Assembly (NCBI GenBank): GCA_036505015.1
Contig: DASXUC010000053.1
Coordinates: forward strand, 38,232-102,231
Source: a bacterium
Lineage (GTDB): Bacteria; Sysuimicrobiota; Sysuimicrobiia; Sysuimicrobiales; Kaftiobacteriaceae
DNA length: 64,000 nt
Direction of reading: 5' to 3'
The notes under the pieces were generated by a model. That model had not been told where the DNA came from, did not search any database, and worked only from the letters and a program-made list of their open reading frames with translations. Shown here in pieces: positions 28,501-54,043 of this stretch. The position numbers and the translations under genes are program-made. Position 1 is the stretch's first letter, and each line of letters starts with the position of its first letter.

Positions 28501-28929
28501 CTAGCCGTCGCCGAGGCTCTTGCGGACGGCGTCGATGAGTTCTGAGGGACTGAAGGGTTTGGTGACGATGCGGTCGGCGCCTGACTGCAGCGCGCGGGCG
28601 GTCATTTCCTGAGTCCCGAACCCGGTGATCAGCACCACGGCCACGTTGGGCCGCAGCGCTTTCGCCGCCTCGAGCACTTCCAGACCGGATACCACCGGCA
28701 TCCGCAGGTCACAGACGATGAGGTCAAACAACTCATCCGTGACCAGCCGCACCGCCTCGACGCCGCCGGCGGCCACCGTGACGCGATAGCCGGCCCGCGC
28801 GAGCACACGGGCGCACAGTTCCCTGATCGGCTCCTCATCATCCACGACGAGGACGTGCCGTGCCGTCACGACCGGACCGTCCGAGTCTTGCGGCATCAGG
28901 GTACTGCGGCTCATCACGGCATCCATCAT
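28501..28929 (-). CDS. Single-domain response regulator (CheY-like receiver)
   Basis: VLVVDDEEPIRELCARVL...DLIVCDLRMPVVSGLEVL...VVLITG. The start overlaps the kinase stop. Confidence 0.85.
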   Translation of the reverse strand: MMDAVMSRSTLMPQDSDGPVVTARHVLVVDDEEPIRELCARVLARAGYRVTVAAGGVEAVRLVTDELFDLIVCDLRMPVVSGLEVLEAAKALRPNVAVVLITGFGTQEMTARALQSGADRIVTKPFSPSELIDAVRKSLGDG

Positions 28930-31382
28930 GAGGCTGCCGGGACCGCGGGAACGCGAATCACAAACTTCGTACCCTGACCGGGTACGCTGGCCACGTCGAT
29001 CGTCCCGCCGTGCTGCTCGATGATGCGCTTGCTGATGGCCAGCCCCAGCCCCGTGCCCTGGCTGCCCTTCTTGGTCGTAAAGAACGGATCGAAGATCTTC
29101 GGCAGGTGCGCCGGATCGATCCCGACGCCCGAATCCTGGAAGACGATCTCGACCTGCGGGGTGCGGCCGACCTCCGGGGCGCTGCGCGCGGTGATGTCCA
29201 CGACACCGCCCCGCGGCATCGCGTCGATCGCGTTGTTCAGGAAATTGATGAACACCTGCTTGAGTCCGTTGACGTCGGCGAGGATGGACGGCAGCACGTG
29301 GTCGAAGTGGGTGGTGATGGTGACGTGCTGCGCCCGCTGCTTCACCAGCGGCAACACGCTCTCGATCACGCTCTCCACCTGCGTCGGTTCCTCCTCCGTG
29401 CCGGTCTGCCGCGCGTAATCCAGCAGGTTGCGCACGATCTCGCGCGCCCGGATCGCCTCGTTCTCCACGACCTGGAGGTCCGCGCGGATCGGGTCGTCCT
29501 TGCCGGCCTCGCTCAGCAGCAGCGACGTGTAGCCCAGCACGCTGGTCAGCGGGTTGTTGATCTCGTGCGCCACGAACGCGGCCAGCTCACCGATCGTCGC
29601 CAGCTTCGCCGACTGCACCAGCTGCAACTGGGTGCGTTCCAGCTCTTCCATCTGCGTCCGCTGGCGCTCGTAGAGGCGCGCATTCTCAATGCCCACCGCG
29701 ATCCCGTCGGCCAGCATCTGCAGCATCGAGACGTCGTCCGGCGAGAACGTCACCCCCGGCCGCTGCCAGACGCGCAGCACCCCGCTGGCGCGGTCGTGGG
29801 TCAGGATCGGGATGTCGGTGCAGCGCTCATCGGGTCCCACCGGCGGGAGAGGGTCGTCCCCCTCCCGCAGGACCACTTCCACGCGCGAGAAGCCGAATGA
29901 CTCCTCGATCAGGCGGGAGGTCTGTTGCAGGAGGATGTCGACGTTGAGGATGGTCGCGATCTTGCGTGTCGCCTGGGTGATCGCGCTGAGCAGCGCGCTG
30001 CGGCGCCGCTCCTGGCCGAACAGCTGGGCTTTCTCGATGGCCACGGCGGCCTGGCTGGCCATCGTGGAGAGGAGATCGATGTTCGACGGCGTCGTTTCGC
30101 GCAGCTCCCCCCCGATGATGATCAGCCCGATGAGGTGATCGCGCAGCTTCATGGGCAGCGTGATCACCGCGGTGGTATCCGACTGCGCATCTCCCATGCA
30201 CAGCTCGCGCACCAACGCCGGGTCGGCGGCGGCGTCGATGACCGTGGCGTGTTCGGCTTCCACGACGCGTCGCATGGCCGGGTCGTCGATCGGACGCAGC
30301 CGCGGTGGCCGGCGCCCTCCGTTGACCTGCCAGACCGCGAACGACAACTGCCTGGCGCTGGCTTCGTAGACCCCGATGCCCAGCAGGTGCAGGGGAATCG
30401 TGCCCCCGATTTGCGTCGCCAGCGCCTCGCTGATCTGGTCGAGCTCAATGCTGCTGGTCAGGGCCCGGGCCAGCTCGTTCAATCCGGCCAGTTCACGCGC
30501 GCGCCCCTCGGCGTCCACCTGGCTCTGCCGGATGCTGTCGGCGGCTTCCACCTGTCCGCGCAGCATCTGCGAGAGTGCCACCATCGGGACCACCAGCAGC
30601 GGCGTCAGCCAGGGGTTGACCAGCCAGAGGTTCGCGACGAGGACCCCCATCCAGATCAGCACAACCTCACGGAAGAAGTTGACCCGTGAGATCGCCCCGG
30701 TCTGGAAAAAGGACCGCCCGGTGGAGAGCACGATGACCTGTCCGACGAGCACGATGTTGGTGAAGTAGAACGTCAGGCCCACGACCAGCGCGAGGCCATA
30801 CCACTGCAAGGCCACCAGTCCCTGGGATTCGACCGGGCGAATGGCGTGCCAGAGCAGTCCGGCCGGGACGACCGATACCAGGTGCTGGGAGATGTTGAAC
30901 AGCCCACGCCGCCAGTCGTACCGTCGCTTGATCCAGTACCCAACCATCGTCACCGCGGCAATGACCAGCGTGCTGATCAACGGCAACAGCAGCAGCGAGG
31001 CCACCAGGACCGCGGTGAGCAGGGAATAGGAAATGCGGGCTTCGGCGGTGGTCGTGGGCATCTGCACGCCCACGAGCTGGGCGACCAGCGCCGCCCCCAG
31101 GAGCAGGACGAAGGGGACATTGAGAACGATCGTGCCCGGCGTCAACAGTACCGCGATCGGCGCCGAAAACGCGCCGAGGGCGACGACCGCCAGGATGTAG
31201 TACTGGGCGGGCAGCGGCAGCCCGGCGGCCGTCCGGGACGGAGGAGCAGGAAGAGTCGTGCCTGTCGATGGTGCGGATGCGCCCTGTCCGCCGGAAAGCA
31301 GCCGCCGGCCCCAACCCCGCAGTGGGCCGACGACCGCGGGAGCCGGCCTGCTCACCTCTTGACCTCCACGGACCGAAGACAC
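28926..31382 (-). CDS. Polytopic sensor histidine kinase (about 8-9 TM, two GAF-like domains, HisKA, HATPase_c)
   Basis: GTG start at 31382. Hydrophobic N-terminal ~280 aa with short loops. H-box AAFVAHEINNPLT. N/G boxes FINFLNNAIDAM, FQDSGVGI and GTGLGLAISKRI. Confidence 0.85.
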   Translation of the reverse strand: MSSVRGGQEVSRPAPAVVGPLRGWGRRLLSGGQGASAPSTGTTLPAPPSRTAAGLPLPAQYYILAVVALGAFSAPIAVLLTPGTIVLNVPFVLLLGAALVAQLVGVQMPTTTAEARISYSLLTAVLVASLLLLPLISTLVIAAVTMVGYWIKRRYDWRRGLFNISQHLVSVVPAGLLWHAIRPVESQGLVALQWYGLALVVGLTFYFTNIVLVGQVIVLSTGRSFFQTGAISRVNFFREVVLIWMGVLVANLWLVNPWLTPLLVVPMVALSQMLRGQVEAADSIRQSQVDAEGRARELAGLNELARALTSSIELDQISEALATQIGGTIPLHLLGIGVYEASARQLSFAVWQVNGGRRPPRLRPIDDPAMRRVVEAEHATVIDAAADPALVRELCMGDAQSDTTAVITLPMKLRDHLIGLIIIGGELRETTPSNIDLLSTMASQAAVAIEKAQLFGQERRRSALLSAITQATRKIATILNVDILLQQTSRLIEESFGFSRVEVVLREGDDPLPPVGPDERCTDIPILTHDRASGVLRVWQRPGVTFSPDDVSMLQMLADGIAVGIENARLYERQRTQMEELERTQLQLVQSAKLATIGELAAFVAHEINNPLTSVLGYTSLLLSEAGKDDPIRADLQVVENEAIRAREIVRNLLDYARQTGTEEEPTQVESVIESVLPLVKQRAQHVTITTHFDHVLPSILADVNGLKQVFINFLNNAIDAMPRGGVVDITARSAPEVGRTPQVEIVFQDSGVGIDPAHLPKIFDPFFTTKKGSQGTGLGLAISKRIIEQHGGTIDVASVPGQGTKFVIRVPAVPAAS

Positions 31383-31436
31383 ATCAGCGATGGTATGGTT
31401 GTTCGCCTTTCCATTGGGGTTCCCCTACGAGGATAG

Positions 31437-31452
31437 AGCAACTTCCATGCCA
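31437..31452 (-). promoter_or_regulatory. Sigma-54 (-24/-12) promoter for kinase-CheY operon
   Basis: Minus strand reads TGGCATggaagTTGCT, 54 nt upstream of the kinase start. Confidence 0.8.
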
Positions 31453-31480
31453 GAACGGGGCGAAAATCCGTCTGTTGCCA

Positions 31481-31528
31481 GGTAGCCACGAGCCATCGCT
31501 TCAGGCTACCCGGCTACCGGTCTACCGG
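31481..31528. repeat. Tandem octamers GCTACCCG GCTACCGG TCTACCGG with an upstream inverted GGTAGCC
   Basis: 31505-31528 holds three tandem 8-mers. GGTAGCC (31481-31487) is the complement of GGCTACC (31504-31510). Confidence 0.6.
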
Positions 31529-31619
31529 TGCAAGGCGGCAGTGGGGACCCGCCGGCGCCCGCGTATTACGGTGCGCAGACGGGCCCCGCCGCCGATGAGC
31601 CTCGGTGCGAAAGGCGCAG

Positions 31620-31772
31620 TTACTCCCAGGTTGCCCCGGTAATCGTGAACCCGCCGCCTCCTGAAAGTACTGGATCCGAGGGCTTCCCGTTTCCATTGCC
31701 CCCCCAGGAGATCGACGTGGCCGCCAGCAGCATTGCTGCCACCAGCAGAGCGGTCATCAGCTTCTTGATCAT
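31620..31772 (-). CDS. 50-aa secreted Gly-rich peptide, paralog 1
   Basis: Below the ORF-track cutoff. RBS GAGAGGAGG. Product is MIKKLMTALLVAAMLLAATSISWGGNGNGKPSDPVLSGGGGFTITGATWE. Compared with paralog 2 over the aligned codons there are 11 synonymous versus 7 (mostly conservative) non-synonymous codon differences. Confidence 0.8.
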   Translation of the reverse strand: MIKKLMTALLVAAMLLAATSISWGGNGNGKPSDPVLSGGGGFTITGATWE

Positions 31773-31814
31773 CTACAGGCGCCTCCTCTCGAATTAGGCT
31801 CAACCTCCAAGAGG

Positions 31815-31830
31815 AGCAAGAACGATGCCT
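31815..31830 (-). promoter_or_regulatory. Sigma-54 (-24/-12) promoter for peptide paralog 1
   Basis: Minus strand reads AGGCATcgttcTTGCT, 42 nt upstream of ATG 31772. Confidence 0.7.
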
Positions 31831-31865
31831 CAGGGGGGACTGGTCCAAAAGAATCTTGCCAGACG

Positions 31866-31902
31866 CAAAAAGGACGACGGCCGGCCGGGATGGCCAACCG
31901 TC
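31866..31902 (-). terminator. Terminator of peptide paralog 2
   Basis: Stem GACGG-cc-GGCC / GGCC-aa-CCGTC (31876-31902), followed on the minus strand by a CCTTTTTGC tract. Confidence 0.55.
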
Positions 31903-31953
31903 GCCGATGACTTCGATGCGCCGGACGTTTTGACTAGCGAACGGACGTGCGGG

Positions 31954-32103
31954 TTACTCCCAGGTTGCCCCGGTAACGGAGAACCCGCCGCTTCCTGAGA
32001 GTACTGGATCCGCGGGCTTCCCGCCTCCATTCGCTCCCCAGGAAATGGACGTCGCCATCAACAGCATCGCAGCTACGAGCAGGGCGGTCAAAAAACTCTT
32101 CAT
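31954..32103 (-). CDS. 49-aa secreted Gly-rich peptide, paralog 2
   Basis: RBS GACGGAGG. Product is MKSFLTALLVAAMLLMATSISWGANGGGKPADPVLSGSGGFSVTGATWE. It shares the C-terminal TGATWE and central KP.DPVLSG with paralog 1. Confidence 0.8.
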   Translation of the reverse strand: MKSFLTALLVAAMLLMATSISWGANGGGKPADPVLSGSGGFSVTGATWE

Positions 32104-32148
32104 CGCAAGGCCTCCGTCGTTCAGTATGGTCGACTAACCATGAATAAG

Positions 32149-32164
32149 AGCAAGAAGCGTGCCA
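32149..32164 (-). promoter_or_regulatory. Sigma-54 (-24/-12) promoter for peptide paralog 2
   Basis: Minus strand reads TGGCACgcttcTTGCT (perfect consensus), 45 nt upstream of ATG 32103. Confidence 0.85.
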
Positions 32165-32273
32165 GTCACGGCCCAGTTGCAGCAAAATGAGTCCGTTATG
32201 TCACCGCATCACTTTTCTCGCGCCGCCGCGGCATGCTATCGTGCGTGCGCAGTCACGCGCAGGAGGGCCCCCC

Positions 32274-33620
32274 GTGTCGGTCAGCGCTCTGGTCGTCGAC
32301 GACGAAGAGAATATCCGCGGTCTGCTCCAGAAGATCCTGACCGAGGAAGGTTTCGATGTCGAGACCGCCACCACCGGCGAAGCCGGCCTGGAACGCTATC
32401 AGGCCCGTCCCTTCGACCTCGTGCTGGTCGACCTCCGCCTGCCCACGATCAGCGGGCTCGAGGTTCTCCAGAACCTTGTCTCCGCCGATCCCGATGCACT
32501 GGTCATCATCCTCACCGGCTACAGCACGGTGGAAACCGCGATCAAGGCGATCAAGCTGGGGGCGTACGATTACGTCGCCAAGCCGTTTCGCCCCGAAGAG
32601 TTGATGGTCGTGGTCAACCAGGCGCTGGAGCGGAACAGGCTGCTGAAAGAAAACCAGCTCCTGCAGCAGGAACTGATGGGCACGTTCAAGTTTCAGGGCA
32701 TCGTCGGTAACGCGCCCAGGATGCGGGAGGTGCTGGCGCTGGCCGCCCGGGTGGCGCCGACGGACGCGACCGTGTTGATCTTCGGCGAGACCGGGGCCGG
32801 CAAGGAGTTGCTGGCGCGATCGATCCACGCGCAAAGCGCGCGGGCCAACGGGCCGTTCGTGGTGGTGAACTGCGGCGCGATCCCCGAAACCCTCCTCGAA
32901 ACCGAACTGTTCGGCCACGAGAAAGGTGCCTTCACCGGCGCGGTGACCAGTCACGTCGGGCGGTTTGAGCGGGCGGCGGGCGGGACGATCTTCCTCGACG
33001 AGATCGGGGATATGAGCCCGGCGATGCAGGTGAAGTTGCTGCGCGTCCTGCAGGAGAAGGTGGTCGAGCGGGTCGGCGGCAGCAAGCCCATCGACGTCGA
33101 CGCCCGGGTGCTCGCAGCGACGCACAAGGACCTGCGCGAGGCGATCACCACCGGGCAGTTCCGGGAAGACCTGTACTACCGCCTCAGCGTGATGCCGCTG
33201 GTCGTGCCCCCGCTGCGCGATCGGGCCGATGATATCCCGATCCTGGCCGACTTCTTCATGAATAAGTACGCGGTGGCCTTCTCCAAGCGGATCAAGGGGT
33301 TTTCGCCGCTGGCGATGCGCCGGCTCCGCGCCCATCGCTGGCCCGGCAACGTGCGCGAGCTCGAGTACACCGTGGAACGCGCGGTCATTCTCGCCGCCGG
33401 ACCGATGATCGAGGCCGACGACATCTGGCTGGACGGGCAGAATGCCGATCCGACGAAGTTCCCCAAAGCGTACTCGCTGGTGGAAAGCGAGCGCCGGCAC
33501 ATCCAGGCCGTGCTGAAGATGACCGGCTGGAATCTGGATGACACCGCCGGCGTGCTGGGACTGGACCGCGACACCCTGCAGGACAAGATCACGACCCACC
33601 GGCTCGAGCCCGAATCGTAA
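32274..33620 (+). CDS. NtrC-family sigma-54-dependent response regulator (REC + AAA+ + Fis-type HTH)
   Basis: GTG 32274 preceded by AGGAGGG. Receiver [14 protein letters not shown]...[10 protein letters not shown]. Walker [15 protein letters not shown] loop (HEKGAFTGA). C-terminal [19 protein letters not shown]. Confidence 0.9.
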
Positions 33621-33668: not shown

Positions 33669-33684
33669 TGGCACGGAACTTGCT
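33669..33684 (+). promoter_or_regulatory. Sigma-54 (-24/-12) promoter for HD-GYP-rpoN operon
   Basis: TGGCACggaacTTGCT, 49 nt upstream of ATG 33734. Confidence 0.85.
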
Positions 33685-33733: not shown

Positions 33734-35206
33734 ATGCCGGTGATGCCGAAGGCGAAAGTCCTGATCGTGGACGACGAACCGTCGATCCGCGAGTTGTGCG
33801 CGAGAATTCTGGGAACCTCCTACGAAGTGGAGACGGCCCCCGACGGGCCCACGGCGATCCGCATGGCCGCAGCGGCGGCGCCTGATCTGTTGCTGGCCGA
33901 CCTGCGCATGCCTGGGATGAGCGGGCTCGACGCGGCGCGGCGGATCGTCGCCGATGCGCCCGAAGTCTCGGTCGTGATCATGACCGGGTTCAGCCAGTTC
34001 GACAGCCTGCTGGAGACCGTGCGGTTCGGCGTCAACGGTTTCGTACTCAAACCGTTCACGCCTGATGATCTCCGCCGGACCGTGGAAGACGGGCTGCGCC
34101 GCGGGCAGTACTTCAAACGTACCGCGCGGCTGCGCTCGCTGGCTCCGATCCTCGATCTGCGCGAAGGGAAGATCAACGGCGATCCGACCCGAATCTTCCA
34201 GACAATCTGTGAAACCGTGCAGCGTGAGCTCGACGCCGATTCGGTGACGCTGGTGGCGCTGGACGAAGACGGCCAGGAGGTGGCCGTCACATCGTCGGTG
34301 GGCAGTCCCGGCGCCGAGCCCGTCACCGTGACGCGGCGGCCCGGCGACGTCGACTGGGTCCCCCCGGTCGTGCCGACCAACGGCAACGGCAACGGGAACG
34401 GTACAGGGCACCACGACGACGGCCAGGTGTTGTCGATGCCGCTGCGCACCGGCGGCGCGGTGGTCGGGGCGCTCACCGTGAAGCGGCGCGATGGCCCGTT
34501 CACCGCGACGGACCGCGACCTGCTGCGGCTGATCTGTGCGCAGAGCAGCGTCGCCATCGAAAACATCCGGTTGTTCACGCACCTGCGCCAGTCCTACTGG
34601 AACACCGTCTATGCGCTGGCGGCGACCGTGGACCTGCGCGATCACCCGACGCGCGGTCACTCCGACCGGCTGGCGCGGTACGCGGTGGCGATCGGCGCCC
34701 GCTTGGGGCTGAAGCCCGACCGGCTCGACGATCTGAAGATTGCCGCGCTGCTCCACGATATCGGCAAGATCGGCATCGGCGACGGCGTGCTACTGAAGCC
34801 GGGCGATCTCACCGCCGAAGAGTACGACCAGATGAAGACCCACACCCTGATGGGCGCGAAAATCCTGGCCATGGCGGGGTTCTCGCCGCGTGTCGTCGAG
34901 GCGGTGCTGTTCCATCACGAACGCTATGACGGATCCGGGTACCCGCTGGGACTGCGGGAAGATCAGATCCCGCTGGAAGCGCGCATCCTCACCGGCGCCG
35001 ACGCGCTGGAGAGCATGACCAGTCCCCGCATGTACCGCCAGGCCATGCCGGTGCCCGCCGCCGTGACCGAGCTCGTGCGCGGGCGGGGGACGCAGTTCGA
35101 CCCGCAGATCATCGACGCCTTGATGGGGTGCCTGGATTCAGGAGAGTTCCACCAGTCACTGGCCGGTGGGCACGATTCGCTCCAGTTGCTCGCGGAGACC
35201 AGCTAA
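33734..35206 (+). CDS. Response regulator with GAF and HD-GYP (c-di-GMP phosphodiesterase) domains
   Basis: Receiver VLIVDDEPSIRELCARIL...DLLLADLRMPGMSG. HD motif LLHDIGKIGI. Intact HHERYDGSGYP. Confidence 0.85.
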   Translation: MPVMPKAKVLIVDDEPSIRELCARILGTSYEVETAPDGPTAIRMAAAAAPDLLLADLRMPGMSGLDAARRIVADAPEVSVVIMTGFSQFDSLLETVRFGVNGFVLKPFTPDDLRRTVEDGLRRGQYFKRTARLRSLAPILDLREGKINGDPTRIFQTICETVQRELDADSVTLVALDEDGQEVAVTSSVGSPGAEPVTVTRRPGDVDWVPPVVPTNGNGNGNGTGHHDDGQVLSMPLRTGGAVVGALTVKRRDGPFTATDRDLLRLICAQSSVAIENIRLFTHLRQSYWNTVYALAATVDLRDHPTRGHSDRLARYAVAIGARLGLKPDRLDDLKIAALLHDIGKIGIGDGVLLKPGDLTAEEYDQMKTHTLMGAKILAMAGFSPRVVEAVLFHHERYDGSGYPLGLREDQIPLEARILTGADALESMTSPRMYRQAMPVPAAVTELVRGRGTQFDPQIIDALMGCLDSGEFHQSLAGGHDSLQLLAETS

Positions 35207-36558
35207 TGGACCTCCGTATCGCCCCGCAGGCGAAAACCGGGCTGCACCAGCGCATGGTGCCCAAATTGATGATGGTGAACACCCTGCTGGTGCTGCCGCT
35301 GGACCAGTTGCTGGCCCGGATCGAGCAGGAACTGGCGGAGAACCCCGCGCTGGAACGCGACGACACCGTGCGCCCGGATGAGATCACCTGGTCGCGCGCC
35401 GGGGAGCGGTCCGCGGCGTCCTGGACGCCCGATGATGAGGATCGCGACCCGTTTGCGGGCCTCACGTCGTCGGTGAGCCTGCACGATCACCTGCTGCTGA
35501 CGCTGCAGGCCGAGCGCTTCACGCCGCGCGAGCACGCCATCGGCGCGCGGCTGATCGGCTACATCAACGATCGCGGGTACCTCGACGTCGCGATCGTGCA
35601 GGTCGCGCAGGAACTGAACGCGGAACCCGACGATGTCGAGCGCGTGCTGCGGCGTATCCAGCGGTTCGATCCGATCGGGATCGGCGCCCGCAGTGTGCAG
35701 GAATCGTTGAGCGTGCAGCTGGAGATGCTCGATGACGTGCCGGCGCGTCGGCTGGCCCAGCAGCTCGTCGCCGCGTACCTCACCCAGCTGGCCGAGCACC
35801 GGTTTGATGAGCTGGCGAAGGCGCTGGGGGCGCGCCCCGCGGAGGTCAAAGAGGCGCTGGCGTTTCTGCAGACCCACTGCTACGCGTCGCCCGGCGAGCG
35901 CTACCGCGCCGACCAGACCGGCGGCGCCGTCGCCCCGTCTGAGGTGGCCTATCCCGACGTGTTGATCCGTCGCACCGACGACGGCTTCGCGGTCGAGCTG
36001 ACGCATCAGGACGGCAGCGCCCTGCGCGTGAACGCCTTCTACGATGACCTGCGCCGCCAGCTCCGCCGCAGCGCGGGGTCGGGGGAGTGGTCCAAAGATC
36101 ACGTTCGCGACTACGTCACACGGGCGAAGTTGTTCGTCGAAGCCCTGCAGCGGCGCAACTGGACGCTGGCCAACATCGTCCAGGCCGTGGTCAGCGCGCA
36201 GTGGGAGTATCTCGACCGCGGCGACGCGCACCTGAAGCCGCTGACGAAAGCCATGATTGCGGCGGAGCTCGGCATCAGCGAATCTACGGTCAGCCGGGCG
36301 CTGGACAGCAAATTCGTGCAGCTGCCCAGCGGCCGGGTGAGCAGTTTCGACGTCTTCTTCGACCAGTCGGTGCCGGTGAAGGAGAAGATCCGCGCCATCG
36401 TCGCCGCCGAGCCGCACCCGCTGACCGACGAAGAGATCGCCACCGCCCTCACCCGCGTCGGCTACCGCGTCGCCCGCCGTACCGTCGCCAAGTACCGCGA
36501 AGCCATCTCCATCCCGCCGTCCACGAAGCGCACGCCGGCCCTCACCGCCGCCAGCTAA
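35206..36558 (+). CDS. rpoN: RNA polymerase sigma-54 factor
   Basis: ATG 35206 overlaps the upstream stop (TAATG). N-terminus MDLRIAPQAKTGLHQRMVPKLMMVNTLLVLP...LEQELAENPALE. RpoN box ARRTVAKYREAISIP at the C-terminus. Confidence 0.9.
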   Translation: MDLRIAPQAKTGLHQRMVPKLMMVNTLLVLPLDQLLARIEQELAENPALERDDTVRPDEITWSRAGERSAASWTPDDEDRDPFAGLTSSVSLHDHLLLTLQAERFTPREHAIGARLIGYINDRGYLDVAIVQVAQELNAEPDDVERVLRRIQRFDPIGIGARSVQESLSVQLEMLDDVPARRLAQQLVAAYLTQLAEHRFDELAKALGARPAEVKEALAFLQTHCYASPGERYRADQTGGAVAPSEVAYPDVLIRRTDDGFAVELTHQDGSALRVNAFYDDLRRQLRRSAGSGEWSKDHVRDYVTRAKLFVEALQRRNWTLANIVQAVVSAQWEYLDRGDAHLKPLTKAMIAAELGISESTVSRALDSKFVQLPSGRVSSFDVFFDQSVPVKEKIRAIVAAEPHPLTDEEIATALTRVGYRVARRTVAKYREAISIPPSTKRTPALTAAS

Positions 36559-36566
36559 GACCAAAA

Positions 36567-36648
36567 CTACCGTTGGTCGTTCGTCGTTGGTCGTTCATCG
36601 ACATTAACCACGAACGATGAACCACTAACGACGAACCATGAACGGTAG
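36567..36648. repeat. Long imperfect hairpin built of tandem heptamers (CGTTNNT) and complements, directly after rpoN
   Basis: CTACCGTTGGT CGTTCGT CGTTGGT CGTTCAT CG - acattaac - CACGAACG ATGAACC ACTAACG ACGAACC ATGAACGGTAG. Confidence 0.8.
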
Positions 36649-36655
36649 TCGAGCG

Positions 36656-36671
36656 TGGCACACCGGTTGCT
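36656..36671 (+). promoter_or_regulatory. Sigma-54 (-24/-12) promoter for GGDEF*-Roadblock operon
   Basis: TGGCACaccggTTGCT, 42 nt upstream of ATG 36714. Confidence 0.85.
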
Positions 36672-36713: not shown

Positions 36714-37790
36714 ATGGCAGAGCGGATGCAGACAAAACGGACGGCGCCATCACCCACAGCACGCAATGGGTCGGCGCGCGGCGGACGGGGATGGACGGCG
36801 CCGGCGCGCGGGGGCCCGGCTGCGGTGGTGGAACTCGAACGCGAACCCCTTGTGGCCCGGCTCGCCGAACAAGCCGAGGAGATGGCGCTGCAGTTGGAGT
36901 GCATGAAGCTGGTGGATGAGGGCCTGCCCACCGAACAAGCGTACAAGCAGTTCCTCGACGTGATGCACCGCGCGGTGCCGTTTGAGCACGGCACCCTGTA
37001 CGTCGCGGAGTGGGAGACGGGCCGTCTCGCGCCCGTGGCCGTCCGCGGCGCCCGGGTGGACATGGCCGTCCGCGCGCCGTCTGCGGCCCCCGGTCCGTCC
37101 GGCTGGATGGTCCAAGCCAGCGCGAACGTCCGCGGCAGCGGCGACGGTGTGGTCGTTGACGGGACGCGGGGGGCGCTGGCCTTTCCGCTCATCCATAACG
37201 GACTGGTCGCCGGGGTCGTGGCGCTGGCCCGCCGCAACCGATCGTTCTCGGAGGAGGAGTCGGCCCGGCTGGCCCGCCTCGCGCACCCGCTGGTCACCAC
37301 GCTGTCCCGGCTGCGCCGCGAGGCGAGATTGCGGGAGCTGGTGTTCACCGACGTGCAGACCGGATTGAGCAACCGGCATCACTTCGTGGCCCGGATCGAG
37401 GAAGAGTTGCAGCGCAACCGTACGCAGGGGGGAGACTTCGTCGTGGCCGTCCTGGAACTGGCGGACGATCCGGCGGCCGCGGAGATGTCCCACACCCGCG
37501 TAGCGCAGTCGTTCGCCCGCGTCCTGCAGCGGTCGATGCGCGGCAGCGACGTGGCCTCGCACCTGGAAGACGGCCGGTTCGGCCTGCTGCTTGTCGGCGT
37601 GGGCCGGGAACAGGCCGTGTCCATCGTCGACCGGATCACGCGCAAGGTGCTGGCCGATCCAGAACTCGCCAACGACCGCAGCGCGATCCGTCTGCGGACC
37701 GGGCTCAGCGGGACGGGGACCGGCGTGCATTCGGTGGATGAGATGCTGGACGATGCAACCGCAGCGCTGGCGACGTTTGACGCCGCATGA
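36714..37790 (+). CDS. GAF-like domain + degenerate GGDEF domain protein
   Basis: GGDEF-domain start TDVQTGLSNRHHF. The active-site position reads SDVASHLEDGRFGLLL, i.e. EDGRF instead of GG[DE]EF. Confidence 0.75.
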   Translation: MAERMQTKRTAPSPTARNGSARGGRGWTAPARGGPAAVVELEREPLVARLAEQAEEMALQLECMKLVDEGLPTEQAYKQFLDVMHRAVPFEHGTLYVAEWETGRLAPVAVRGARVDMAVRAPSAAPGPSGWMVQASANVRGSGDGVVVDGTRGALAFPLIHNGLVAGVVALARRNRSFSEEESARLARLAHPLVTTLSRLRREARLRELVFTDVQTGLSNRHHFVARIEEELQRNRTQGGDFVVAVLELADDPAAAEMSHTRVAQSFARVLQRSMRGSDVASHLEDGRFGLLLVGVGREQAVSIVDRITRKVLADPELANDRSAIRLRTGLSGTGTGVHSVDEMLDDATAALATFDAA

Positions 37791-37827: not shown

Positions 37828-38319
37828 ATGGAATCGTTGAGTGGTGCACTGCGCACGATGAAGACGCGATCGCTGGCCGAATCGGCGTTCGTAGCGTCAT
37901 CCGACGGGCTGGTGCTCGACGCGATCAGCGACGACGGGGTGGCGGTGGACTCCATCGCCGCGTACGCGGCCGGCAGCGTGTCGGTGGCGGAACGGATGGG
38001 CGAGGACGCCGAGCTCGGCGCCCCGCAGTCGGTCATCCACCTCTACGGCAACAAGACGCTGATGATCGCCCCGGTGGGCCCGGCCCTCCTGGTGCTCGTC
38101 GGCAACGGGCGCTCACAGCTGGGGATGATGCGCGTCCAGCTGCAGGCCGGTCTGGCAGATCTCCGCAGCGCCTTGGAGCGGGATCTGTTCGGACCCGGCG
38201 CCGAGCAGCCCGCGGCCGACGCGTCGGCGCCGGCCAGCGCCCCGGCGGCGACGAACGGTCACACGACCCCGGCGCGTCCCAACCTGGACGCGATTCTCGA
38301 AGCGGCGGTGGCCCGCTAA
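37828..38319 (+). CDS. Roadblock/LC7 (MglB-like) domain protein with Ala/Pro-rich tail
   Basis: ATG 37828 preceded by GAGGAGG. SAFVASSDGLVLDAI...IHLYGNKTLMIAPVGPALLVLVG is the Robl/LC7 pattern. Confidence 0.7.
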   Translation: MESLSGALRTMKTRSLAESAFVASSDGLVLDAISDDGVAVDSIAAYAAGSVSVAERMGEDAELGAPQSVIHLYGNKTLMIAPVGPALLVLVGNGRSQLGMMRVQLQAGLADLRSALERDLFGPGAEQPAADASAPASAPAATNGHTTPARPNLDAILEAAVAR

Positions 38320-38334
38320 GGCACGGAAGTTGCT
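38319..38334 (+). promoter_or_regulatory. Sigma-54 (-24/-12) promoter for secreted protein A
   Basis: AGGCACggaagTTGCT, 127 nt upstream of GTG 38462. Confidence 0.7.
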
Positions 38335-38461
38335 CGCGGAATGAACAAAATACGGCGCAGAATGTACTTGCCAATGGTCCCGCGCGTCGATAGCATGATG
38401 GTGTTGCAGCCGCAGTGCACGGTCCGCGGCCGCAGCACTATCTCGACGGGCGGGACGTGGC

Positions 38462-38893
38462 GTGTTCGCCTACACAGCGCGGCACGGGAATCGGATCTGG
38501 CGCTTCGCCACAGCAATCCTCGCGGGATTGGCCGTGCTCGCCGCGCTGCAGATGCCAGTGCGCGCGCAGTCCTCTGCTTCCGTGATCTCCATCTCCGTGC
38601 CGGTCGCCCAGGTGCTCGACGGCGCAACCGTCAGCGCCGTGCCTGCGGGAACCCTTGTCAGTGGGCAGCTGACCGTGAAGAGCAACGTGCCGTGGATGCT
38701 GGTGGTCAACGTCGACACCGGCGAGCCCGCGCTGGTCACCTGGTCGCCTGAGGCCCTCTGGCAGCCACTTCCCGCACACGGCGTGGTCCTGCAAGGTCCC
38801 AAGGGCATTCATCACCTGATCTACCGCCTGCGCGCGGCGCCCGCCGCGAAGCTGCAGACGATCGTCCGCTTCTCGCTCTCGCCCTCCCCGTAA
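38462..38893 (+). CDS. Secreted small beta-sandwich-like protein A (putative fibre/pilin-like subunit)
   Basis: Signal peptide ...LAALQMPVRAQS. Motif LTVKSNVPWMLVVNV is shared with protein B. The C-terminal strand is TIVRFSLSPSP. Confidence 0.55.
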   Translation: MFAYTARHGNRIWRFATAILAGLAVLAALQMPVRAQSSASVISISVPVAQVLDGATVSAVPAGTLVSGQLTVKSNVPWMLVVNVDTGEPALVTWSPEALWQPLPAHGVVLQGPKGIHHLIYRLRAAPAAKLQTIVRFSLSPSP

Positions 38894-38971
38894 GACCAGC
38901 GGTTGACTTTTTTTCGTCCTGATGTCCTAGGACGTATTTCCTATTCCCGGCGGGCCGCCGCCCGGGTCCGG

Positions 38972-38987
38972 TGGCACCGAAGTTGCT
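38972..38987 (+). promoter_or_regulatory. Sigma-54 (-24/-12) promoter for protein B / chaperone-like / usher-like operon
   Basis: TGGCACcgaagTTGCT (perfect consensus), 66 nt upstream of ATG 39054. Confidence 0.85.
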
Positions 38988-39053
38988 CATCTGGTATTCC
39001 GGGAGCAGATTGATGCTCAGATACGACATCACCGGAATTCAGGAGGGCTACAG

Positions 39054-39554
39054 ATGAGCACGTATCTCGGGTTCGCGCGCATCGCTATCATCGCCGTACT
39101 GCTGGTAAGTCTCGCCGCCGGAGCCGGATTCGGTGCCGCTGGTGGGTCACAGAGCGTGACCACCGCGGCGGCGGCAGGCATCGACATTACCGTATCGGGA
39201 TCCGCGTCGATTGCTTCGACCGCGCCGGGGGCCTGCGGCACGAGCGGCACGACCGTCAACGTCAAGAGCAACAAGGCGTGGAACCTGCAGGTCCGTTCAG
39301 ATCCGTCGAGTTATTCGAACGGAAAGGCGAAGAACGGGACCACGGAGATGACCGACGCCTTCCAGTACAAGGGCGGCGACGTCTCCTCGTACACGGCGAT
39401 CACGGCATCGTACGGGAACCTCTACAGCTCAAACCAGGTCAAGACCACAGGTTCAGGCGTGGACGTGAGCGTTAACTATCAGCAGTGCGTGGAGTATGAG
39501 GACTCGCCGGGCAACTACACGATCGTCGTTGAGTACCTCGGCGTCCAGCCGTAG
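39054..39554 (+). CDS. Secreted small beta-sandwich-like protein B (putative fibre/pilin-like subunit)
   Basis: RBS AGGAGGG and a signal peptide. Carries the VNVKSNKAWNLQVRS motif. The C-terminal PGNYTIVVEYLGVQP is reminiscent of the terminal strand of CU pilins, SCPU and WxL-type domains. Confidence 0.6.
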   Translation: MSTYLGFARIAIIAVLLVSLAAGAGFGAAGGSQSVTTAAAAGIDITVSGSASIASTAPGACGTSGTTVNVKSNKAWNLQVRSDPSSYSNGKAKNGTTEMTDAFQYKGGDVSSYTAITASYGNLYSSNQVKTTGSGVDVSVNYQQCVEYEDSPGNYTIVVEYLGVQP

Positions 39555-39566
39555 CGGTCCACGGAT

Positions 39567-40397
39567 GTGACGGGGGCGCGGGTCCAGACGATGCGGGCTA
39601 GAGTGCGGGGGATCACGCTGGCCTGCGCCCTCTTCCTCTTCACGGCGGCGCTGCCGCTGCACGCCGACACCCTGCGGTTCGGGCTCACGCCCCCGGACGT
39701 CGAATTGGTCCCCGCTCCGGGCGGCACCGCCAGCGGCACCCTGGTCGTCTACAATCGTTCCACCCGAGCGCTGCACTTCCGCGTGGTGACCCAGGATATG
39801 TTCATCCGTCCCAGCGGGGTGATGGAAGTCCTGAAGCCCGCCAGCACGGCATGGTCGGTGGCGGCGGCGACCCGTCTGGCGCCGGCGGAGTTCGATCTCG
39901 ATCCCAATCAGCAGATGGCGGTGCGGGTGGTCGTCACCGCTCCCCGCGACGCGCGGGGCGGTTTGTACGGCGCGATCGTCGTCTCGCCGACGCCCATGCT
40001 GCAGTCGAACGGCCCGCGCGGCACGTTCGCGGTCGTCGCCCCGAAGCTGGCGGCGCGGCTGCTCGTGCCCATTGACGGCACGACGGCGCTGCAAGGCGCG
40101 ATCGTCAACATGCTTGCGGCCGCCGTTCCCGGAAAGGGCGTCGACGTCAAAGTCGCCTTCCGCAACAGCGGCAACGTGCACGTGCGTGCCGACGGCGTGA
40201 TCACGCTGCTCCGCAACGGCGACGTGGTGGCCAGGGCTCCGATGGAAGAGTCGCTGGTGCTGCCGGGCACCGTACGGGAGTTCCGGCTGCTCCTGCCCAC
40301 CGGCCGTCTGGCCCCCGGCTCGTACACCGTCCGGGCTGTGATGGACTTCGGCGGCGACGTCATGGTCGCCGGGGAAGTTCTGTTCGTCTCCCGGTGA
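39567..40397 (+). CDS. Secreted two-Ig-fold protein (PapD/DUF916-like putative chaperone)
   Basis: Signal peptide (ITLACALFLFTAALPLHA). Two ~110-aa beta-rich halves (GTLVVYNRSTRALHFRV...; VKVAFRNSGNVHVRADGVI...PGSYTVRAVMDFG). The start may be ATG 39591. Confidence 0.5.
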   Translation: MTGARVQTMRARVRGITLACALFLFTAALPLHADTLRFGLTPPDVELVPAPGGTASGTLVVYNRSTRALHFRVVTQDMFIRPSGVMEVLKPASTAWSVAAATRLAPAEFDLDPNQQMAVRVVVTAPRDARGGLYGAIVVSPTPMLQSNGPRGTFAVVAPKLAARLLVPIDGTTALQGAIVNMLAAAVPGKGVDVKVAFRNSGNVHVRADGVITLLRNGDVVARAPMEESLVLPGTVREFRLLLPTGRLAPGSYTVRAVMDFGGDVMVAGEVLFVSR

Positions 40398-40412
40398 GCC
40401 CGGTCGCCTCCC

Positions 40413-42830
40413 ATGCGGCTTCTCCGTTCCGCACTCGCCGGGTGCGTCGCAGCCCTCCTGATCTGGGCCGCGCCCACGTCTGCCGCCGCCGCGTCGCCGG
40501 CGGTGCGCGTGTTTCTTGACGACGCTCAGTCCAGCGCGCTGACCGCGCTCATCCTCAACGAGGCGTTGTACTTCCCCCTGCGCGCGCTCGCCGTGTCGCT
40601 GCGGGCCACGCTGACCGTCAAGGGCGTTGAGCTGGAGGTCCGGCGCGCGGATGGCCGGGTGTTTATGGTGCGCGTGGGACGCCGGGAGATCTGGGCCGAT
40701 GCCCAGGTGATCGCGCTGGCCGAATCGCCGGTCCTGCTCGTCAATGGGATTACGATGGCGCCGCGCGGCGCCGTCGAGACGATGTTCGACGCCTTGGTCA
40801 TCTGGAACAAGGAGGAGAACACCGCGACGCTCGTGACGCAGGCCGCCTTTCATCCTGCCGAACCGGTCCCCGCCCCCATCCGAGCGAGCGTCAGACCCAT
40901 CGCGAAAACCGTGACGACGTTCGCGCCCGAGTTTCAGCCGGTGCGGGAGCGCCCGGTCGTGGCGTCGGGCACCGTGGGGGTCACGCTGTCTGCCAGCGGA
41001 TCTGCTCTGTCGGTCTCGTCGCATCTGGCGTTTGTGTCGCAGGGTGAGAGCGGCACGATCCGCGGTGCGTTCGGCATCGGCTCCGGCGCGAACGGGCCGG
41101 CCGGAGCCGAAGGCATCCTGACCTGGCGCCGCGGGTCCTCGCTGCTCTCGGCGGGGGTGTTGTCGATCTATGATTCTCCGCTCACGCTGTATGAGCAGGG
41201 CTTCGTGGGGCTGATGTACGATCAGCGTTTGGGCAGCATCCAGACCCGTTTCTTCGGCGGGATGCTGCCCGGCTCCGGCGGTTCGGTCTACGGGATGTCC
41301 ATCCGCCTGCCGCAGGTCGGCTCGCTGCTGGCCGAAGCCACGCTGCTGTACAGTCCGGAGGCCAACGCGACGATCGCGCGCGGCCGCGTCGACTGGCGCC
41401 TCCGCCCCGGCGTGTCGCTGTTCGGGGAGGTCGCCGTCGGCACGTCGGCGGCAGGATCGGGCCTGGGCTGGCGGTCCGGGGTGGAGTACGCCTCGGATCG
41501 ATGGACGATCTCACTCAGCTACCTGTCGCTGGGACCCCGCTTCCCGACGTTGGGCAACGCCGCCGTGTTTGCCGGACGCCATGGGCCTGTCATTGAGCTG
41601 GCCTACCATCCGAACTCGCGCTGGCTCGTGCTGGCGAGCGCCGCCCTGCTGGCGGGGGAGCCGGGCATCCCGAGCCGGCTGGCCTACCGCGTCTTCCTGC
41701 AGTATCAAATCTCTGCGTCGCTCGCGGTGGTGGGGGAAGCCCGCAGCACCGACGAGCCGGTGAACGGCGTGCGCGTGCGCCGCGATTCGGCGCAGGTTTC
41801 ACTGCTGTACACGTCGGGCCGCTGGAACGCCGCGCTGACCGCGGGGAAGGGGCTGGATGAGCAGGCCGGGCGGACCACCGCCAACAGCGCATCGGTCTCG
41901 CTGCGCGCGGGGTACGTTCTCTCCAACGGGTGGCCGGTGTGGGGCGAAGCGAGCGCGCTGATCGGCGATACCCGCGGGTGGGTGCTGAGCGCCGGGACGA
42001 GGTTCAAGGTGAATTCGCGGTTCGACCTGACCGCGCAGCTGCGCAGTAAGACGATCGTCTGGCCGAGTCCGTCGGCAGAACGGGCCGTCGAGCTGGGCAT
42101 CGTGCATCCGCTGGCGTCCGGTGGGCAACTCAGCGTGGGCGCGGGCGTCAAACTGACCTCCTCGTCTGCAGCCGCGCCGTATCTGACCATCGGCTACACG
42201 CGACCGTTCACCGTCTTTGGGCCGCTGCGCGTGGGCCAGGTGGCCGCCGACGTCTTCATCGATTCCAACGGCAACGGGCGGCGCGATCCCGGCGAGCCGG
42301 GCGTGGCCGGCGTGGTCATCCGCCTCGATGCGCGCAGCGCAGCGCGCACCGACGCCGCGGGGCATTCGACGGTGGAGGGCGTGCGCGAGGGAGAGTACGG
42401 GGTGTCGGTGGATGAAAATACGGTCCCCGTCGGACTCGTTGCCCAGCAGCCCGAGACGCGCGTACGGATTACCGCCGACGGCCGCACCACCATCAGCTTT
42501 GGGCTGATCCCCGCCGCCGCGCTGCGGTGTGTCGTGTATCTGGACGAGAATGGCAACGGCGTGCGCGAGAAGACTGAGCACGGGATCTCCGACGTGTCAG
42601 TGCTGCTACAGCCACTGGGTCGGCGCATCATCTCAGATGCCGATGGGGTGCTGGTGTTCGGAGACCTGCGGTCTGGGGCCTACACGGCGGTGATCGATGC
42701 CAGCGTGCTGCCGGCGGGGCTCAAGATGGGAGGTCCGGGAACCTTCACGACGACGCTGGCGGCCGGCGGATCGGCGTCGTGTGAGCTGCCGGTGCTCAAC
42801 GCGAAGCCCATCGTGGTCACCTTCCCCTAA
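40413..42830 (+). CDS. 805-aa secreted protein: copper-amine-oxidase-N-like domain + beta-barrel-like core + two SdrD-B/CnaB-like domains (putative usher-like platform)
   Basis: Signal peptide. LNEALYFPLRALAVSLRATL...LLVNGITMAPRGAVETMFDALVIW is the Cu_amine_oxidN1 pattern. A ~450-aa region of alternating amphipathic strands follows (ISLSYLSLGPRF, VFLQYQISASLAVVGEARS, VSLLYTSGRWNAALTAG, GWVLSAGTRFKVNSRFDLTAQLRS). The C-terminal repeats read DSNGNGRRDPGEPGVAGVVIRLD and DENGNGVREKTEHGISDVSVLL. Confidence 0.6.
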   Translation: MRLLRSALAGCVAALLIWAAPTSAAAASPAVRVFLDDAQSSALTALILNEALYFPLRALAVSLRATLTVKGVELEVRRADGRVFMVRVGRREIWADAQVIALAESPVLLVNGITMAPRGAVETMFDALVIWNKEENTATLVTQAAFHPAEPVPAPIRASVRPIAKTVTTFAPEFQPVRERPVVASGTVGVTLSASGSALSVSSHLAFVSQGESGTIRGAFGIGSGANGPAGAEGILTWRRGSSLLSAGVLSIYDSPLTLYEQGFVGLMYDQRLGSIQTRFFGGMLPGSGGSVYGMSIRLPQVGSLLAEATLLYSPEANATIARGRVDWRLRPGVSLFGEVAVGTSAAGSGLGWRSGVEYASDRWTISLSYLSLGPRFPTLGNAAVFAGRHGPVIELAYHPNSRWLVLASAALLAGEPGIPSRLAYRVFLQYQISASLAVVGEARSTDEPVNGVRVRRDSAQVSLLYTSGRWNAALTAGKGLDEQAGRTTANSASVSLRAGYVLSNGWPVWGEASALIGDTRGWVLSAGTRFKVNSRFDLTAQLRSKTIVWPSPSAERAVELGIVHPLASGGQLSVGAGVKLTSSSAAAPYLTIGYTRPFTVFGPLRVGQVAADVFIDSNGNGRRDPGEPGVAGVVIRLDARSAARTDAAGHSTVEGVREGEYGVSVDENTVPVGLVAQQPETRVRITADGRTTISFGLIPAAALRCVVYLDENGNGVREKTEHGISDVSVLLQPLGRRIISDADGVLVFGDLRSGAYTAVIDASVLPAGLKMGGPGTFTTTLAAGGSASCELPVLNAKPIVVTFP

Positions 42831-54023: not shown

Positions 54024-54043
54024 CCGTGGCTCGCCCAGCCCGC

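Follow-up and report, generated by a model that had tools for sequence, protein, structure and literature searches.

We analysed a 64,000-nucleotide stretch of the bacterial contig DASXUC010000053.1 (positions 38,232 to 102,231 of the forward strand, hereafter the window) and focused on a gene cluster that lies between a Polβ-type nucleotidyltransferase gene and an Nfu gene. The cluster holds rpoN, the gene for the sigma factor σ54, together with the gene for an NtrC-type enhancer-binding protein (EBP), a sensor kinase, proteins related to cyclic di-GMP (c-di-GMP), two small secreted peptides and a putative surface-assembly operon. On balance we favour the view that the cluster is a conserved chromosomal σ54 regulon of an uncultured soil lineage, which has grown in place around an ancestral EBP–rpoN pair and works as a switch controlling surface remodelling. 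This reading is carried by seven σ54-type promoters and by their conservation in related genomes.

An earlier note, made from the window alone, had listed seven such sites, and their coordinates, strands, orientation and spacing of 42–127 nt were all borne out by a motif search. The promoters are (REC, receiver domain; GGDEF*, degenerate GGDEF):

31437..31452, minus strand: σ54 promoter of the kinase–REC operon, TGGCATggaagTTGCT, 54–81 nt before the start
31815..31830, minus strand: σ54 promoter of peptide 1, AGGCATcgttcTTGCT, 42 nt before an ATG with a GGAGG ribosome-binding site
32149..32164, minus strand: σ54 promoter of peptide 2, TGGCACgcttcTTGCT
33669..33684, plus strand: σ54 promoter of the HD-GYP–rpoN operon, TGGCACggaacTTGCT, kept in 10/10 loci covering the position
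36656..36671, plus strand: σ54 promoter of the GGDEF*–Roadblock operon, TGGCACaccggTTGCT, invariant in 12/12 sequences
38319..38334, plus strand: σ54 promoter of secA, AGGCACggaagTTGCT, 127 nt before the start
38972..38987, plus strand: σ54 promoter of the secB–p276–p805 operon, TGGCACcgaagTTGCT

The strict motif, GGCAY-N5-TTGCT, was found seven times in the 64-kb window, as compared to 0.21 ± 0.43 expected from 100 dinucleotide shuffles; the highest count in any shuffle was two, and none of the 100 reached seven. All seven sites lie within 31.4–39.0 kb of the window and each is oriented toward a gene, with 42–127 nt between the 3' end of the promoter and the start codon and with a GGAGG-type ribosome-binding site at most starts. 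When the motif was written as TGGCAC-N5-TTGCW and one mismatch was allowed, six of the seven sites were recovered together with one unrelated site in the window. A position weight matrix (PWM) built from 55 sites (window and relatives) gave no extra site above 14 bits in the window, and the sole other match (13.4 bits) is intracoding, at 45877. The two kinds of scan agree with the earlier statement that the other ~50 kb of the window hold no further GGCAY-N5-TTGCT.

Relatives were collected by a scan of one genome per species, which gave 11 loci (L001–L011) with rpoN 59–90% identical to that of the window. All of them belong to uncultured soil metagenome-assembled genomes, labelled Armatimonadota/Armatimonadetes, "Bacillati bacterium ANGP1" or "bacterium". 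The 177.6 kb of these loci contain 48 copies of the strict motif, as compared to ~0.6 expected at the shuffle rate of the window, and the copies occupy orthologous positions even where the intergenic DNA is unalignable. This is clearest just after rpoN, in the DNA leading to the GGDEF* gene, where the 15-nt motif is invariant in 12/12 sequences and the flanking DNA cannot be aligned between sub-lineages; a motif that stays invariant inside unalignable flanks is the footprint of a functional element. The promoter of the kinase operon has an orthologous site in 9/10 loci holding the region (none was scored in L008), and equivalents of the secB-operon promoter precede secB in L001, L002, L006 and L009–L011. 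As judged from sequence, the seven sites are σ54-type promoters, with a −24 GG and a −12 GC, a fixed spacing and conserved orthologous positions.

The secA promoter is placed at the very end of the operon before it. The A at 38319 is both the last base of the Roadblock TAA (38317–38319) and the first base of the 16-nt promoter, whose −24 GG is 38320–38321. The start of secA transcription would therefore lie within ~30 nt of where the preceding operon ends, without an intervening terminator.

The regulatory genes of the cluster and its two flanking genes are:

27586..28488, plus strand: Polβ-type nucleotidyltransferase (Pfam Polbeta), left flank of the cluster
28501..28929, minus strand: CheY-like REC-only protein (Pfam Response_reg, 101.7 bits), second gene of the kinase operon, present in L001–L011
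28926..31382, minus strand: sensor histidine kinase, 818 amino acids (aa; Pfam GAF, HisKA, HATPase_c)
32274..33620, plus strand: NtrC-type EBP, REC–AAA+–HTH_8 (Pfam Sigma54_activat, 241 bits; GAFTGA intact)
33734..35206, plus strand: REC–GAF–HD-GYP protein (Pfam HD_5, 121.6 bits; HDIGK and HHERYDGSGYP intact)
35206..36558, plus strand: rpoN, 450 aa (Pfam AID/CBD/DBD; RpoN box ARRTVAKYRE)
36714..37790, plus strand: GAF–GGDEF* protein (Pfam GGDEF, partial, 37.9 bits)
37828..38319, plus strand: Roadblock/LC7 protein, 163 aa (Pfam Robl_LC7, 28.2 bits; JGI gene call)
42941..43213, plus strand: Nfu_N scaffold protein (Pfam), right flank of the cluster

Pfam returned the same domains that had been read by eye for rpoN, the EBP, the kinase, the CheY-like REC protein, the REC–GAF–HD-GYP protein, the degenerate GGDEF protein and the Roadblock protein, and for rpoN the assignment was further supported by TIGR02395 (294.7 bits, equivalog cutoff 277.35). 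Independent JGI gene calls on the identical contig agree with the map of the cluster, both small peptides included. The kinase probably starts at the GTG at 31355 or at that at 31382. Its hydropathy profile shows ~6–8 transmembrane segments between aa 63 and 270, a membrane domain for which no family match was found, and its catalytic core is closest to kinases of the AtoS/ZraS/NtrB type, which are partners of NtrC-type EBPs. The open reading frame (ORF) of the EBP opens at 32187 and its likely start is the GTG at 32274 (the JGI call has 448 aa). The best NCBIfam matches of the EBP, AtoC (476 vs 714 bits) and PrsR (446 vs 502.6 bits), both fall below cutoff. As had been claimed, the EBP gene lacks a σ54 promoter in the window; the PWM scan and the translation agree with this and with the intact GAFTGA loop.

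The true start codon of rpoN, the ATG at 35206, and the stop codon of the HD-GYP gene overlap (TAATG), and the two genes are thus translationally coupled behind one σ54 promoter. With both of its catalytic motifs intact, the REC–GAF–HD-GYP protein is likely to be a c-di-GMP phosphodiesterase controlled by phosphorylation. GGDEF* does not pass as a diguanylate cyclase: it lacks a GG(D/E)EF motif and has EDGRF in its place, and it scores 34.3 bits against the TIGR00254 cutoff of 37.4. The RxxD I-site (RGSD) is retained five residues upstream, and the protein is probably a receptor for c-di-GMP and not a cyclase.

Gene order, flanks included, is conserved in the 11 related loci, so that the synteny proposed as a check was found. 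The left flank consists of an HTH-TPR gene, a LuxR-type gene and the Polβ-nucleotidyltransferase gene; on the right stand Nfu and a gene for a 2-oxoacid dehydrogenase E2 subunit. REC, kinase, EBP, HD-GYP, rpoN, GGDEF* and Roadblock form a core present in all loci covering the region. The surface operon is absent from L003 and L005, where Nfu directly follows Roadblock. A further locus, L022, comes from a distant member of the Armatimonadota (rpoN 47% identical) and has the order nucleotidyltransferase, EBP, rpoN, Nfu, with nothing between. Here the EBP gene overlaps rpoN; the EBP and the nucleotidyltransferase are 59% and 50% identical to those of the window, and no σ54 promoter was found within ±10 kb of rpoN. 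A still more distant rpoN (37% identical) sits in an unrelated context. Since the bare skeleton of L022 stands between the same flanks, the rpoN of the window is an ordinary chromosomal orthologue and not an extra copy brought in by an island. As far as these comparisons go, the EBP–rpoN pair is ancestral and the lineage of the window has inserted the remaining genes in place between the same flanks, and each inserted transcription unit carries a σ54 promoter in front.

The cluster had been described as an island, a term that did not hold. Base composition and GC content inside the cluster equal those of the flanks, which contain housekeeping genes (Suf, 2-oxoacid dehydrogenase), and Pfam searches of the cluster and flank proteins found no integrase or transposase. 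Together with the gene order shared by 11 loci and the bare skeleton at the same site in L022, this led us to reject a mobile genomic island. The cluster is better described as a regulon that has accreted around the gene for its sigma factor.

How far this regulon extends, which the earlier note had called self-contained, is a separate question. It is conceivable, if somewhat less than an even bet, that rpoN encodes a general σ54 which also serves other activators and distant targets, such as flagellar genes reached by a FliA cascade. The position of rpoN is the ancestral chromosomal one between nucleotidyltransferase and Nfu, and in L022 the skeleton has no local σ54 promoters, hence σ54 must act elsewhere there. 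Moreover, L003–L011 have genes with a flagellar flavour inside the cluster. One encodes a FliA/WhiG-family sigma factor (TIGR02479, 212.8 vs 189.6 bits) and stands between GGDEF* and Roadblock; in L009 it is at 12632-13441, inside the σ54-driven GGDEF*–Roadblock operon, and it fills the equivalent gap in L003–L011. Since it is part of a σ54-driven operon, a σ54→σ28 cascade would operate in those genomes. The others are a FlgN-like ORF (28.3 bits, below cutoff) and a FlaG-like ORF (27.1 vs 23.8 bits), which in the distant relatives immediately precede the EBP gene and have a σ54 promoter in front of them (L009 5783-6283 and 6202-6648; L006 6380-6778; L004 5784-6227 and 6325-6642); the EBP is therefore probably autoregulated there. 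We saw no structural genes for flagella within ±10 kb, and the sub-lineage of the window (window, L001 and L002) has none of the FliA/WhiG, FlgN-like and FlaG-like genes. Neither the other ~50 kb of the window nor the DNA that flanks the 11 related clusters yielded further sites. As regards the local genes, such a wider regulon is compatible with the regulon accreted in place that we favour.

In that reading, the polytopic GAF kinase would sense a membrane or periplasmic cue and phosphorylate the receiver of the EBP, and probably those of the CheY-like and REC–GAF–HD-GYP proteins as well. The activated EBP would then remodel closed complexes of the σ54 holoenzyme at the seven −24/−12 promoters. 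The promoter of the kinase operon would provide feedback on the sensor, and the two peptide promoters would lead to two small Sec-exported peptides that contain tryptophan (Trp). From the HD-GYP–rpoN promoter a c-di-GMP phosphodiesterase and σ54 itself would be made, which amounts to positive feedback on σ54, and the GGDEF*–Roadblock promoter would add a protein resembling a c-di-GMP receptor and the Roadblock protein. The secA promoter would yield a pilin-like protein, and the secB promoter a very divergent fibre of the chaperone–usher type, with a subunit, a PapD/WxLIP-like chaperone and an outer-membrane pore of usher fold. No terminator was found to separate the EBP gene from the HD-GYP–rpoN operon, and basal σ54 could therefore come from read-through of the σ54-independent EBP gene. 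Induction would lift σ54, sensor, phosphodiesterase and receptor together and give a switch-like, self-amplifying remodelling of the surface, along with a change in c-di-GMP.

Two structured DNA elements lie among these transcription units:

31873..31905, minus strand: intrinsic-terminator-like hairpin after peptide 2, 14-bp stem and T tract
36566..36649, plus strand: long hairpin between the rpoN stop and the next promoter, tandem 8-nt units, 35-nt arms, 86% complementary

The long hairpin has a ΔG of −48.5 kcal/mol (z −7.0), and its unit in the window is GGTCGTTC with its complement. Hairpins of like design stand upstream of the GGDEF promoter in L001, L002, L006 and L008–L010, with units that differ between sub-lineages (CCCAGTCT, TTGAAACG, GGGATC…), so that the structure is kept and the sequence is not; in L008 and L009, repeats of a similar kind are also found ahead of the HD-GYP promoter. 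The element may be a terminator, an insulator, an RNA stabiliser or akin to repetitive extragenic palindromic (REP) sequences. When the cluster was scanned with Rfam at E ≤ 1, a chance-level snoRNA match was the sole result, and we therefore see no c-di-GMP riboswitch in the long leaders.

Between the kinase and the EBP genes lie the two peptide genes:

31620..31772, minus strand: peptide 1, 50 aa, signal peptide ending SISWG, then GNGNGKPSDPVLSGGGGFTITGATWE; JGI-called gene
31954..32103, minus strand: peptide 2, 49 aa, signal peptide ending SISWG, then ANGGGKPADPVLSGSGGFSVTGATWE; JGI-called gene

The two are paralogous, as first noted by eye. In both, a Sec-type leader is followed by a mature peptide of 26–27 residues with GATWE at its end. 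Pfam and NCBIfam searches of the peptides gave no match, and readings of them as PEP-CTERM proteins, precursors of ribosomally synthesised and post-translationally modified peptides or pilins were dropped, for want of a supporting motif or a neighbouring enzyme. Peptide genes of the same design are present in every locus holding the slot between kinase and EBP (10/11 loci), in two or three copies except in L008, where one was seen. In all copies but one the leader ends in S[VI]SWG. The core differs sharply between sub-lineages and carries one to three [GS]ATWE units, with W, WE or WQ at the C-terminus. In the window, L001 and L002 two peptide genes each have a σ54 promoter to themselves, and the distant loci have at most one site in the slot. 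Because the peptides occur together with kinase and EBP also in L005, which has no surface operon, and in L004, where the locus ends before that position, they belong with the regulatory core and not with the fibre.

This distribution bears on the idea that the Trp peptides are ligands of the kinase, and that the cluster is a quorum- or confinement-sensing loop like Agr/Com which runs through an NtrC-type EBP and σ54. A conserved leader with a core that is hypervariable between lineages is the pattern expected of signal specificity, the paralogues keep their place beside the sensor in all 10 loci with the slot, and placing peptides, kinase and σ54 under one promoter type gives the topology of autoinduction. 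The sensor is polytopic and has no known ligand domain. Its core, on the other hand, resembles AtoS/NtrB and differs from the HPK10 type of kinase that senses peptides. Moreover, a mature peptide of ~25 residues would be trapped in a diderm periplasm unless exported, and no AgrB- or ComAB-like gene for processing or export was found in the cluster. For peptides without a family match the role of ligand is a prediction, and we consider this loop improbable, at about one chance in four. An Opp/Dpp-type peptide ABC importer (SBP_bac_5, BPD_transp_1 permease) with an M24 peptidase is encoded ~15 kb upstream, at 10029-15565 of the window. It is probably unrelated to the cluster and would become relevant if the peptides were re-imported signals.

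The last two σ54 promoters of the cluster drive the putative surface-assembly genes:

38462..38893, plus strand: secA, secreted protein, 143 aa, distant paralogue of secB
39054..39554, plus strand: secB, pilin-like secreted subunit, 166 aa (AF2 and Foldseek)
39567..40397, plus strand: p276, periplasmic protein, 276 aa, two β-sandwich domains, signal peptide, WxLIP (DUF916/DUF3324) family
40413..42830, plus strand: p805, predicted usher-fold outer-membrane protein, 805 aa (Pfam, AF2, Foldseek)

At gathering thresholds, Pfam has no PapD, Usher or fimbrial match for the proteins of this operon, and the labels given in the earlier note, chaperone-like and usher-like, had no support from Pfam. The former was backed by profile–profile comparison and the latter by a fold search. 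Several results connect p276 with PapD-type chaperones. Its family is large (2,442 representative clusters), and a profile of 58 members searched against PDB matched EfmWxLIP1 of Enterococcus faecium over the full length with an E of 5e-14; the next match was EcpB (0.0033). With a profile of six p276 orthologues there was no match in PDB, and the link is visible only with the 58-sequence profile. Pfam WxLIP_PGBD (formerly DUF916) was found in 27/58 members of the family, and p276 of the window is itself below Pfam thresholds, as are all PapD_N/C matches of the family. When the family was aligned by hhalign with an alignment of FimC, YadV, SfmC, EcpB and EcpE, a probability of 95.5% and an E of 1.3e-8 were obtained over 206 columns that include both domains. 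The hydropathy profile of p276 shows no C-terminal transmembrane helix. These profile comparisons support p276 as a remote homologue of PapD-type chaperones within the WxLIP family.

For p805 the case was made by the predicted structure. The protein begins with a Cu_amine_oxidN1 domain and a disordered linker, followed by ~26 β-strands (aa 182–602) and two SdrD_B-type β-sandwiches. In Foldseek ranks 1–15 were all FimD or PapC (E 6.9e-17 to 1.7e-8, ~750 aligned columns), and generic porins matched only from an E of ~4e-8. The model thus supports an usher fold, with a large barrel, an N-terminal domain and two C-terminal β-sandwiches.

In the secB protein two Cys are invariant, the N-terminal segment is of an alternating kind and the C-terminus holds a YTIVVEY strand. 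Its family is small, with 36 clusters at ≥53% identity, and every one of them bears a hypothetical annotation. By sequence it has no match in PDB, and Pfam has none for secA or secB, with the WxL domain not found at E ≤ 5. Among its Foldseek matches in PDB the top ones are mostly chaperone–usher pilus subunits or pilin domains (CfaB, CsuA/B, CupB6, FimA, PapE), and every match above rank 27 is of this kind. The N-terminal segment is disordered and alternating, which would be compatible with a donor strand, as far as the weak fold matches that accompany it (E ≥ 2e-3) allow. The secA protein has its N-terminal strand and a VKSNxxWxL motif in common with secB (probability 59% and E 9e-5 when aligned by hhalign with the secB family) and is present in the window, L001 and L002 only, among the 11 loci and the window. 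In L009 (14322-14774 and 14866-15333) and L010 (14278-14775 and 14863-15378) tandem secB-type genes replace secA and secB, and such pairs fit sets of major and minor subunits.

A module of the same three parts recurs in unrelated lineages with 37–46% GC, where it has no σ54 promoters. It consists of several pilin-sized proteins with the W-x-L strand, a p276-like protein (single or in tandem) and an SdrD_B protein of ~1,000 aa. The loci are metagenomic and low in GC (L012 1985-9680; L013 2752-10177; L014; L015 4780-10691), and L012 has six tandem subunit paralogues; some of the chaperone-like genes are tandem duplications of ~540 aa. The module genes of L012–L015 have no functional annotation, and Pfam gave domain-level matches on the large proteins and one faint match. 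Between the secB family and the small proteins of the other modules only the xSNxxWxL strand aligns (probability 8%), and homology of the subunits across modules is therefore not supported.

A rather different picture would be a static surface complex like those of WxL/Csc clusters, in which p805 is an outer-membrane anchor or pore and no pilus is polymerised. The strongest match of p276 is EfmWxLIP1 and nearly half of its family carries WxLIP_PGBD, secA and secB both have the W-x-L strand motif, and for WxLIP proteins, which are membrane-anchored Gram-positive surface proteins, it has been proposed that they donate a β-strand to WxL domains and do not polymerise (PMC10599100). On the other hand, p276 lacks the WxLIP membrane anchor and secA and secB have no Pfam WxL domain, and the fold matches of secB are to pilins that polymerise. 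Likewise, p805 matches ushers ~eight orders of magnitude better than porins, and the other modules hold several pilin-sized paralogues, as in sets of major and minor subunits. We judge a static complex doubtful. That secB–p276–p805 represents a widespread unrecognised branch of chaperone–usher systems is somewhat easier to accept and still short of an even chance; here the chaperone would be the soluble diderm counterpart of WxLIP and a bridge to the monoderm WxL clusters, and the module would have been captured by a self-amplifying σ54 circuit with the peptides as possible autoinducers. Chaperone–usher systems have been reported from Proteobacteria, Cyanobacteria and Deinococcus-Thermus (PMC4654587), and our literature search found no paper that ties WxLIP/DUF916 to ushers.

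Some of our results weigh against a self-amplifying σ54 regulon with a chaperone–usher-like output. The AF2 models are of intermediate confidence (pLDDT 75 for secB and 70 for p805), the Foldseek matches of secB are individually weak (best E 2e-3, TM-scores of 0.45–0.54), and as a candidate for a plug domain in p805 the model offers only short low-confidence strands and a loop at aa ~225–300. In sequence, p805 has no Pfam match to the Usher family (PF00577) and hhalign found no profile similarity to FimD, HtrE, SfmD and EcpC (probability 1.2%). Further, no k-mer or inverted repeat above shuffled controls, as expected of a shared activator site, was found in the seven upstream regions of the window or in the total of 55. 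A site of a degenerate or intragenic kind may exist, and as no common one was found, we infer the assignment of the EBP to the seven promoters. The FliA/WhiG, FlgN-like and FlaG-like genes of the relatives suggest a regulon that reaches beyond the cluster, and there may be other EBPs, other σ54 targets or a second rpoN elsewhere in the genome. The notion that the motif matches are chance or non-promoter sequence has practically no probability left, in view of seven sites where a fraction of one was expected, all oriented before genes, and is effectively refuted by the conservation of 48 orthologously placed copies in spacers that are otherwise unalignable.

Two groups of genes in the window outside the cluster should be mentioned. 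Upstream, at 22178-25321, lies the gene for a STAND-type regulator of 1,047 aa that resembles SARP/AfsR (AAA/NB-ARC, TPR, Trans_reg_C, BTAD); it is followed by the HTH-TPR and LuxR-type genes, which in most loci keep their synteny with the cluster. On the other side, at 53915-62051 and downstream of the Suf operon, there is a run of large secreted-looking proteins, of 1,174 aa (two VWA, F5/8 type C, Sad1/UNC-like), 714 aa (transglutaminase-like) and 712 aa (no family).

Taken together, we regard the cluster as a natural example of a regulon that has accreted around its own sigma-factor gene, in which the ancestral EBP–rpoN state and the expanded state can be compared. Such a comparison bears on the evolutionary assembly of σ54 regulons, which always need an activator. 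With σ54 under its own promoter type and coupled to a c-di-GMP phosphodiesterase, one would predict a switch that is bistable and locks itself. Through the output operon there comes to light a large unannotated family of modules that resemble pilus-assembly systems, and evidence from sequence and structure ties WxLIP (DUF916/DUF3324) to PapD-type chaperones; if true, the chaperone–usher principle would extend to phyla from which it has not been reported, and a mechanism for WxL clusters, which are poorly understood, would be suggested. In a phylum of which hardly any member has been cultured, the peptide family is a candidate for a signalling system.

Autoactivated rpoN circuits and dedicated RpoN–EBP pairs are among the closest known systems. 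The nifU2–rpoN superoperon of Rhodobacter capsulatus (Cullen et al. 1994) and rpoN2 of Rhizobium etli are reported examples of this group. As in these, the σ54 gene of the window is distal in an operon with a σ54 promoter and the activator gene is nearby, an arrangement that would give positive feedback and requires a basal promoter. Unlike them, rpoN is here an orthologue at the ancestral position and not a paralogue, it is coupled to an HD-GYP gene, and the outputs are peptides, c-di-GMP proteins and a putative pilus instead of nif or fla genes. The RpoN paralogues of Cereibacter sphaeroides with their cognate activators belong to the same group (PMC11999139).

With NtrB/NtrC, AtoS/AtoC and ZraS/ZraR the cluster shares a kinase core of that family and a REC–AAA+–HTH_8 activator, and with PrsK the combination of a polytopic membrane domain and GAF in the kinase. 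In contrast to NtrC, AtoC, ZraR and PrsR, however, the EBP is below every equivalog cutoff, and the membrane domain of the sensor matches no family. Against PrsK/PrsR (TIGR02915/TIGR02916) the EBP scores 446 vs 502.6 bits and the kinase 99.7 vs 300 bits, the latter over the core only. The peptides differ from those of PEP-CTERM systems in that they end in …WE and have no PEP-CTERM signal.

The surface operon is like archaic (Csu) and alternative (CFA/I, ECP) chaperone–usher pili in its order of subunit, chaperone and usher and in a subunit that is nearest to CfaB and CsuA/B, and like chaperone–usher pili in general in that the p276 profile aligns with FimC and EcpB over both domains and that the domain order and predicted fold of p805 are those of an usher. 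It departs from them in the Cu_amine_oxidN1 domain at the N-terminus and the SdrD_B-like domains at the C-terminus of p805, in a model with no visible plug and in a host outside the reported phyla (PMC4654587). With the Gram-positive WxL/Csc clusters it has in common the full-length similarity of the p276 family to EfmWxLIP1 and the small W-x-L partners encoded alongside. It is set apart from these clusters by a p276 without a C-terminal transmembrane helix, by partners without a Pfam WxL domain, by the lack of an LPXTG protein and by the presence of a predicted outer-membrane barrel of usher fold in a host that is presumably diderm.

In RpfC/RpfG a cell–cell signal is sensed by a kinase that controls a REC–HD-GYP protein, and Agr and Com are systems of peptide autoinduction. 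The sensor kinase beside a REC–HD-GYP phosphodiesterase recalls the former, and peptide genes and a sensor under the same inducible promoter type would, by analogy, resemble the latter. Unlike in either, the output would pass through σ54 and an EBP, and the kinase is neither a hybrid of the RpfC kind nor of the HPK10 type; compared with Agr/Com, the cluster also lacks AgrB- and ComAB-like processing genes, and the signal role of the peptides is that of a candidate. The cluster is a variant built from known kinds of system, namely an NtrC-type σ54 circuit, an autoactivated rpoN and an assembly of the chaperone–usher type, and is not a categorically new mechanism.

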